Origin: Escherichia coli | GTDB taxonomy: Bacteria; Pseudomonadota; Gammaproteobacteria; Enterobacterales; Enterobacteriaceae | DNA length: 64,000 nt | Direction: 5' to 3' (one strand) | NCBI RefSeq assembly: GCF_003334765.1 | Contig: NZ_QOWT01000021.1 | Part shown: positions 46,269 to 46,610 of the stretch, in pieces | How positions within the stretch are numbered: the stretch's first letter is position 1 | How the letters are laid out: every line of letters starts with the position of its first letter | The notes under the pieces: generated by a model | The model's database searches: none | What the model saw: the letters and a program-made list of their open reading frames with translations, nothing else | What the model was told of the DNA's origin: nothing | Translations under genes and position numbers: made by a program

Positions 46269-46610
46269 ATGAAACAGGCAACAAGAAAACCGACGACACC
46301 CGGAGATATTCTTCTCTATGAATATCTGGAACCGCTCGATTTGAAAATCAATGAGTTAGCAGAGTTGCTGCATGTTCATCGTAATAGCGTCAGTGCACTG
46401 ATCAATAACAATCGTAAACTCACTACTGAGATGGCATTTCGTCTGGCGAAAGTTTTTGATACCACAGTCGATTTTTGGCTAAACCTCCAGGCGGCGGTTG
46501 ATCTTTGGGAAGTTGAAAACAACATGCGCACCCAGGAAGAATTGGGACGGATTGAAACAGTGGCTGAATATTTGGCACGCCGTGAAGAGCGTGCAAAAAA
46601 GGTCGCGTAA
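46269..46610 (+). CDS. ybaQ: XRE/HigA-like helix-turn-helix DNA-binding protein YbaQ (antitoxin-like)
   Basis: ATG at 46269 (MKQATRKPTTPGDILLYEYLEPLDLKINELAELLHVHRNSVSALINNNRKLTTEMAFRLAKVF..) 113 aa; ORF-track start 46215 is an upstream extension. Confidence 0.88.
   Translation: MKQATRKPTTPGDILLYEYLEPLDLKINELAELLHVHRNSVSALINNNRKLTTEMAFRLAKVFDTTVDFWLNLQAAVDLWEVENNMRTQEELGRIETVAEYLARREERAKKVA

Follow-up and report, generated by a model that had tools for sequence, protein, structure and literature searches.

The ybaQ gene in the 64-kb stretch of Escherichia coli DNA analyzed here (hereafter, the window) is very probably the relic antitoxin gene of a higB-1/ybaQ toxin-antitoxin module. This confidence applies to its identity and its history, whereas the present role of YbaQ in strains without the toxin is much less certain. 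The window does not hold a complete HigBA module of type II, as the antitoxin gene alone is present. Both the orphan status of YbaQ and the lineage-specific loss of higB-1 are already published and were reproduced independently here. RASTA-Bacteria called YbaQ a solitary antitoxin in 2007 (PMC2374986). Rousset et al. (2020) reported that ybaQ is essential in 5 of 18 strains, which belong to phylogroups B2/F and carry an intact higB-1 upstream, with CFT073 as an exception owing to a stop codon in its higB-1 (bioRxiv 10.1101/2020.05.25.114553). They also reported that higB-1 is derepressed upon ybaQ knockdown, that most phylogroups, K-12 included, do not have higB-1, and that phylogroup D lost both genes (bioRxiv 10.1101/2020.05.25.114553). 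The present analysis adds the exact junctions, counts over 5426 genomes, an operator consensus, a decay series, and a link to D6-like phage-plasmids.

The relevant region of the window is the ushA-ybaK-ybaP-ybaQ-copA segment of E. coli. For a 1.7-kb query around ybaQ, matching E. coli chromosomes numbered in the thousands, and identity reached 100% in some; the genes annotated there are ybaP (TraB/GumN family), ybaQ (HigA family addiction module antitoxin), and copA. The features of this segment are as follows.

45337..46131, minus strand: ybaP, divergent from ybaQ
46269..46610, plus strand: ybaQ coding sequence (ATG start, TAA stop, 113 aa), encoding a HigA-family antitoxin, an XRE-type HTH DNA-binding protein
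46314..46478, plus strand: Cro/C1-type helix-turn-helix domain of YbaQ, codons 16-70 (Pfam HTH_3)
46590..46607, plus strand: last six codons of ybaQ, encoding RAKKVA, the C-terminal ClpXP recognition signal (C-motif 2); reads cgtgcaaaaaaggtcgcg
46632..46892: REP/BIME array of three tandem 101-nt units, starting at 46632, 46733, and 46834
46926..49430, minus strand: copA, 3′ of the REP/BIME array

We analyzed the family membership of YbaQ by profile and structure searches. With the NCBIfam equivalog TIGR02607 ("HigA family addiction module antitoxin"; curated cut-off of 47.7 bits), YbaQ reached 105.3 bits, and the alignment spanned profile positions 2-80 of 81. Residues 16-70 matched Pfam HTH_3 (PF01381) with an E-value of 1.6e-10. 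The first-pass annotation had described YbaQ as a HigA-class antitoxin homologue with an XRE-type HTH, and these searches agree with it, placing the protein inside, not outside, the antitoxin family. The crystal structure deposited as PDB 2EBY, "Putative HTH-type transcriptional regulator ybaQ", is identical in sequence to the YbaQ of the window, and the next-best solved relatives (3TRB, 3CEC, 7CSV, 6JPI, 6F8S/6F8H, 2ICP, and 4MCT) are antitoxins of HigBA/GraTA pairs. The HTH stretch was nearly invariant across homologues from complete toxin-antitoxin pairs, and most homologues showed a C-terminal K-K/N-V/A-A ending. RAKKVA of YbaQ has been catalogued as a ClpXP substrate tag of the C-motif 2 type (PMC9775585 Table 2) and employed as a ClpXP/ClpAP degron (PMC2907309). 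Judged from its sequence, such a tail fits what would be expected of a labile antitoxin.

The partner of YbaQ was found in other E. coli strains at the same position. In Nissle 1917, the ybaP-ybaQ interval contains a pseudogene annotated as "type II toxin-antitoxin system RelE/ParE family toxin", which is frameshifted by one T missing from a T7 run. TUM9975 has an intact toxin gene of 303 nt (100 aa), with 35 nt between its end and the ybaQ ATG. Its product, HigB-1, matched Pfam HigB-like_toxin (PF05015) with an E-value of 3e-32. The closest structure was chain 6F8S_B, "Putative Killer protein", with an E-value of 2.8e-15, and the partner chain of 6F8S also matched YbaQ. Among 5426 complete E. 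coli genomes, 1267 carried higB-1 directly upstream of ybaQ, one copy each and always on the chromosome. When an evenly spaced sample of 30 toxin carriers was taken, 17 were identical to the intact 303-nt ORF, and the 1-nt deletion of the Nissle type (302 nt) was found in three. The YbaQ protein of the window was 100% identical to those of the toxin-bearing Nissle 1917 and TUM9975, with four synonymous differences between the genes, indicating that the DNA-binding and toxin-binding surfaces were kept. As a side observation, the higB-1 region of E. coli HS-02 (NZ_CP172818.1; L023, 1297..1585), annotated as a hypothetical protein, contained long A, C, and T homopolymers. This region is most likely a sequencing or assembly artefact rather than an allele, and HS-02, which gave a partial toxin match, was discarded as an intermediate form.

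The surroundings of ybaQ in the window were as previously claimed, with the divergent ybaP on one side and a BIME array, followed by copA, on the other. Units 1 and 2 of the array shared 97% identity. The ybaQ-copA spacer of Nissle 1917 and TUM9975 was 57 nt long and did not contain the array, indicating that the REP/BIME array is polymorphic within E. coli. It had also been claimed that no toxin gene adjoins ybaQ, with a small unannotated ORF upstream or on the opposite strand named as the place to look. We found only chance ORFs in and around the 137-nt ybaP-ybaQ spacer.

46175..46321, plus strand: chance ORF of 48 aa
46153..46236, minus strand: chance ORF of 27 aa
46082..46183, minus strand: chance ORF of 33 aa

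The small ORFs of the spacer matched no NCBIfam or PADLOC family and were rejected as candidate toxins for this reason; only the first 6 codons of the 48-aa ORF were common to the toxin-bearing allele. When HigB-1 was searched against all 64 kb by tblastn, the best E-value was 0.18, and nothing was found within the ybaP-ybaQ spacer. With both the ORF family searches and the tblastn search negative, the claim is upheld. A remnant of the toxin gene within the 137-nt spacer was similarly rejected, as blastn at word size 7 with the Nissle segment matched only the shared left 61 nt. We also considered a longer YbaQ translated from the in-frame ATG at 46215 and rejected it, because this start is not conserved: homology with the toxin-bearing allele starts only at 46263, downstream of the 46215 ATG, and an in-frame TAG interrupts the extension in one toxin-less Escherichia lineage (L005; read from the alignment).

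Alignment of the toxin-bearing and toxin-less alleles defined the junctions between them. The higB-1/ybaQ pair of phylogroups B2/F occupies the same ybaP-copA locus, and its ybaQ is orthologous to that of the window and codes for an identical protein. In comparison, the window was without about 403 nt and carried 70 unrelated nt instead. The two parts of the spacer in the window are listed below.

46132..46192, no strand assigned: left 61 nt of the ybaP-ybaQ spacer, common to toxin-bearing, toxin-less, and ybaQ-less alleles
46193..46262, no strand assigned: 70-nt segment specific to the toxin-less allele, in place of about 403 nt of B2-type strains

The left part was identical to Nissle 1917 at 60 of 61 nt. 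The stretch of about 403 nt in the toxin-bearing allele contains the operator/promoter, higB-1, a short spacer, and a GAAAGG Shine-Dalgarno motif, and homology between the alleles resumes at 46263, 6 nt before the ybaQ ATG. No similarity was detected between the 70-nt segment and the Nissle segment. The difference between the alleles is a replacement, not a clean deletion. The 70-nt segment was 91-96% conserved in three other toxin-less Escherichia lineages and was single copy within the window. A search for its source gave no similarity among the loci compared except in toxin-less alleles, and none elsewhere in the window.

We then analyzed the expression signals upstream of the orphan gene. 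The 70-nt segment contained only a weak promoter-like match, TGGAGA-17-TATGAT, at 46191..46219. In the toxin-less allele (46245..46268), the positions 4-12 nt before the ybaQ ATG contained no AGGA-type motif, and the closest AGGA stops 17 nt short of the start codon, whereas GAAAGG lies 7 nt upstream of ybaQ in the toxin-bearing allele. As a Shine-Dalgarno-like motif is missing at normal spacing, translation of the orphan ybaQ may be weak. Scans for inverted repeats and for promoters and terminators gave nothing useful.

Next, the alleles were counted in a survey of the 5426 complete E. coli genomes.

ybaQ present: 4834 of 5426 genomes
higB-1 segment present: 1267 of 5426 genomes
toxin-less junction, covered at ≥80%: 3567 of 5426 genomes
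ybaQ absent: 592 of 5426 genomes

The genomes with higB-1 and those with the toxin-less junction added up to exactly the 4834 carriers of ybaQ. Using higB-1 as the query, blastn at distant sensitivity found a homologue in 1328 of the 5426 genomes. The copies were 1267 chromosomal ones, the same number as the genomes with higB-1 just upstream of ybaQ, and 63 plasmid ones (~73% nucleotide identity), and about 4100 genomes were without higB-1-like DNA in this sensitive search. YbaQ is a solitary antitoxin in that no toxin gene adjoins it and these roughly 4100 genomes contain no higB-1-like DNA. Some genomes had gone further. The ybaQ-less allele of strain DG341-1 was derived from the toxin-less allele by a 372-nt deletion equivalent to 46218..46589 of the window, which left 25 nt from the start of the 70-nt segment joined directly to the final 21 nt of ybaQ (L002, 2388..2445). 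This junction was matched by at most 188 of the 5426 genomes, and the locus must be organised otherwise in the remaining ~400 genomes without ybaQ. The alleles form a decay series from the complete pair through the solitary antitoxin to a scar, and ybaQ is a well-documented case of toxin-antitoxin decay within one species. It also illustrates that the essentiality of a "core" gene can be confined to particular strains. Two further observations were made on these alleles. A 7-nt tandem duplication (CGCAAAT) lies just upstream of the deletion junction in DG341-1, and in E. coli 2018-18.25PC (NZ_AP023286.1) ybaQ is apparently split by IS1A, with two HigA fragments flanking an IS1-family transposase.

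Such decay raises the question of whether the orphan ybaQ is a functionless relic that has not yet decayed, the loss of the toxin having removed the only selection on it. ybaQ is clearly dispensable, being absent in 592 genomes, interrupted by IS1 in one strain, and frameshifted in Escherichia sp. E1V33. The 372-nt deletion class, which arose from the toxin-less allele, and the weak promoter-like match and missing Shine-Dalgarno motif of that allele point the same way. However, the ORF was covered at ≥80% in 4831 of the 4834 carriers, all at ≥95% identity. Compared with the toxin-less lineages L004 and L005, dN/dS of ybaQ was 0.11 and 0.09, on 2-3 non-synonymous and 5-9 synonymous changes, and that of the neighbouring ybaP was 0.05-0.07. 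Although based on few substitutions, these ratios point to purifying selection on the orphan ybaQ in toxin-less lineages, over a distance at which dS of ybaP reached 0.22-0.29 (0.09-0.10 against B2 strains). Furthermore, YbaQ is expressed in K-12 at a level sufficient for its inclusion among ClpXP substrates and for ChIP-exo peaks from which a motif was derived. We consider a functionless relic somewhat unlikely on balance. Separately, dS of ybaQ between the window and L004, L005, and L009 was 0.07-0.13, much lower than that of its neighbour ybaP. With only 113 codons, such a gap may arise by chance; alternatively, recombination may have carried the ybaQ segment from one lineage to another.

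We infer that YbaQ persists through a low-level activity, most likely as a stand-alone HTH repressor of a few other sites and/or by neutralising and repressing homologous HigB modules that arrive on mobile elements. ChIP-exo of YbaQ in K-12 by Gao et al. (2018) gave a motif, although the main text names no targets, and Rousset et al. found this motif in the higB-1 promoter (bioRxiv 10.1101/2020.05.25.114553). They suggested that the conservation of ybaQ without the toxin reflects other functions (bioRxiv 10.1101/2020.05.25.114553). Why a toxin-less antitoxin is retained is a question that they had already raised, to which the present finding adds little new.

To extend the comparison beyond E. 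coli, one genome per bacterial species was scanned, giving 17 loci with YbaQ homologues. Three of these (L004, L005, and L009) were Escherichia lineages with the ybaP-ybaQ-copA order and the toxin-less 70-nt allele. Outside the ybaP-copA locus, all 13 of the 13 YbaQ homologues had a HigB-1 homologue (39-79% identity) immediately upstream. Their hosts were Trabulsiella, Citrobacter, Enterobacter, Kluyvera, Sodalis, Erwinia, E. albertii, other Escherichia sp., and one Caldilineaceae MAG. Comparison of homologous promoters, through which alone the operator was found, gave a motif conserved in 10 of them, one being that of a D6-like plasmid: TGCACTTG(T/C)GCAC(A/T)GTGC, N4-5, GTGC. It overlaps a -10-like element, and we take it as a putative operator (TGCACTTGyGCACaGTGC-N4-5-GTGC). 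In the window, the motif had no match at up to 3 mismatches. The corresponding weight matrix scored 4.8 bits at best in the window and -7.7 bits upstream of ybaQ, compared with 36-45 bits for true sites and up to 12 bits in shuffled sequence.

Taken together with the homologous systems, these comparisons suggest the following history. The ybaP-copA interval of an Escherichia ancestor would have held a type II toxin-antitoxin module of the HigBA type (GraTA-like). When complete, this module has higB-1 located 35 nt upstream of ybaQ; the 100-aa product is a toxin of the HigB family, to be regarded from its homologues as a ribosome-dependent mRNA endonuclease with a RelE fold. Both genes would be read from a single promoter overlapped by the conserved operator. 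YbaQ would bind this operator via its HTH as well as the toxin, and its RAKKVA tail would make it a ClpXP substrate. In the lineage of the window, the operator/promoter, higB-1, and the Shine-Dalgarno motif would then have been removed and 70 unrelated nt substituted, leaving the antitoxin gene on its own, to be read from other upstream DNA. Neither the cognate toxin nor the cognate operator of YbaQ is present in the 64-kb window.

We infer that the direction of change was loss, not gain. The opposite direction would make the toxin-less arrangement ancestral, with higB-1 and its promoter gained later in B2/F. This can appeal to the toxin-less allele, including the 70-nt segment, being present in three Escherichia species-level lineages more distant than B2; simple parsimony on those three alone favours a toxin-less ancestor. 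In addition, the alleles differ by a replacement of 403 nt by 70 unrelated nt and not by a simple deletion. However, antitoxin and toxin are paired in the same order and at similar spacing at all 13 other loci. The ybaQ beside higB-1 is the orthologue of the window gene, encoding an identical protein with only 4 synonymous changes, and as the same orthologue stands in both alleles, the toxin did not come with a foreign antitoxin. A lone toxin gene with a matching operator would have had to insert exactly upstream of its cognate antitoxin gene, which is far less likely than loss. A later gain is, in our estimate, very improbable. For the window, the annotation of the gene is settled: ybaQ is a real HigA-family gene, and its partner is missing through lineage-specific loss rather than through mis-annotation.

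The first-pass annotation had offered two explanations for the orphan, namely that YbaQ had become a stand-alone regulator or that its partner is encoded elsewhere. The first is plausible, since ybaQ is conserved without the toxin, while the second finds no support at the DNA level, as higB-1-like DNA was limited to the 1328 genomes and to the chromosomal and plasmid copies counted above. The partner exists in other lineages, at the same position, and is removed here together with the promoter/operator. YbaQ could still be an antitoxin in the source genome for a toxin at another chromosomal site; its protein is unchanged from that of toxin-bearing strains, and cross-talk between the antitoxins and toxins of paralogous modules has general precedent. 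Nevertheless, this is extremely improbable, given the distribution of higB-1-like DNA, the lack of anything HigB-1-like in the window, and the essentiality of ybaQ only where higB-1 is intact (5 of 18 strains), with K-12 being without higB-1 (bioRxiv 10.1101/2020.05.25.114553).

The higB-1/ybaQ module was also compared with solved systems. The best solved match for HigB-1 (E-value of 2.8e-15) was the Pseudomonas putida pair 6F8S/6F8H, described as an XRE family regulator and a "Putative Killer protein", which we take to be GraTA. Its regulator matched YbaQ with an E-value of 3e-10, and the pair shows the same toxin-first order and the same PF05015 and HTH_3 domains as higB-1/ybaQ. However, the sequences are distant, YbaQ has a longer C-terminal tail with RAKKVA, and the window is without the toxin. 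HigBA of Proteus vulgaris Rts1 (4MCT/4MCX) and HigA of E. coli CFT073 (2ICP) belong to the YbaQ family, with E-values of 3e-6 and 3e-9. These are type II systems with the toxin upstream, for which the toxin match of HigB-1 was weak (E-value of 0.02). They are much more distant and are complete modules located on a plasmid or elsewhere in the chromosome.

Closer relatives of the module were found on phage-plasmids. By tblastn, HigB-1 homologues of 80-81% identity were present on 92 plasmids (~75-95 kb) of E. coli, Salmonella, and Citrobacter. Two of these plasmids were inspected; they contained RdgC or Ref-nuclease genes, and in each a HigA gene lay right behind the toxin gene. The phage-plasmid D6 (MF356679, 67887..68201) carries the same HigB/HigA pair, with a toxin 80% and an antitoxin 78% identical to HigB-1 and YbaQ, and the promoter of its module contains the same operator sequence. 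In contrast to ybaQ, the D6 module is a complete pair on an extrachromosomal element of ~75-95 kb, and its antitoxin tail ends in NKKAA. The HTH region was nearly unchanged between YbaQ and the D6-like antitoxin. In strain F8704-2, the orphan chromosomal ybaQ allele and a D6-like plasmid occurred together; this plasmid, pF8704-2_2 (NZ_CP050999.1; L021, 3926..4712), encoded both members of the pair, its HigB sharing 80% identity with HigB-1 and its HigA 78% with YbaQ.

Because the pair is homologous, the operator the same, and the HTH nearly unchanged, YbaQ could act on the D6-like module. On these grounds, solitary YbaQ might confer anti-addiction or immunity against D6-like phage-plasmids, a speculative role that we hold to be rather improbable. 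If it were true, chromosomal YbaQ could repress the incoming D6-like operon and neutralise its toxin, and a host that lost the element could escape post-segregational killing. The purifying selection on ybaQ after toxin loss, in two thirds of E. coli genomes, would then also have an explanation. A chromosomal ccd module of Erwinia chrysanthemi was reportedly proposed as an anti-addiction module by Saavedra De Bast and colleagues in 2008. The likeness lies in a chromosomal antitoxin that is homologous to one of a mobile element and could neutralise the mobile toxin; it holds by analogy, since the Erwinia ccd is a complete pair, whereas ybaQ is solitary. The link to D6-like phage-plasmids may be unexplored and, as far as could be seen, is new.

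Second copies of the antitoxin gene in E. albertii and E1V33 encoded proteins near-identical to the D6-like antitoxin and lay on contigs of 71 and 95 kb; because of these contig sizes, we read both as probably being D6-like elements. In E1V33, the ybaQ at the ybaP-copA locus (L009, 3001..3339) was frameshifted near codon 93, and the complete D6-like higBA pair was found on another contig (L010).
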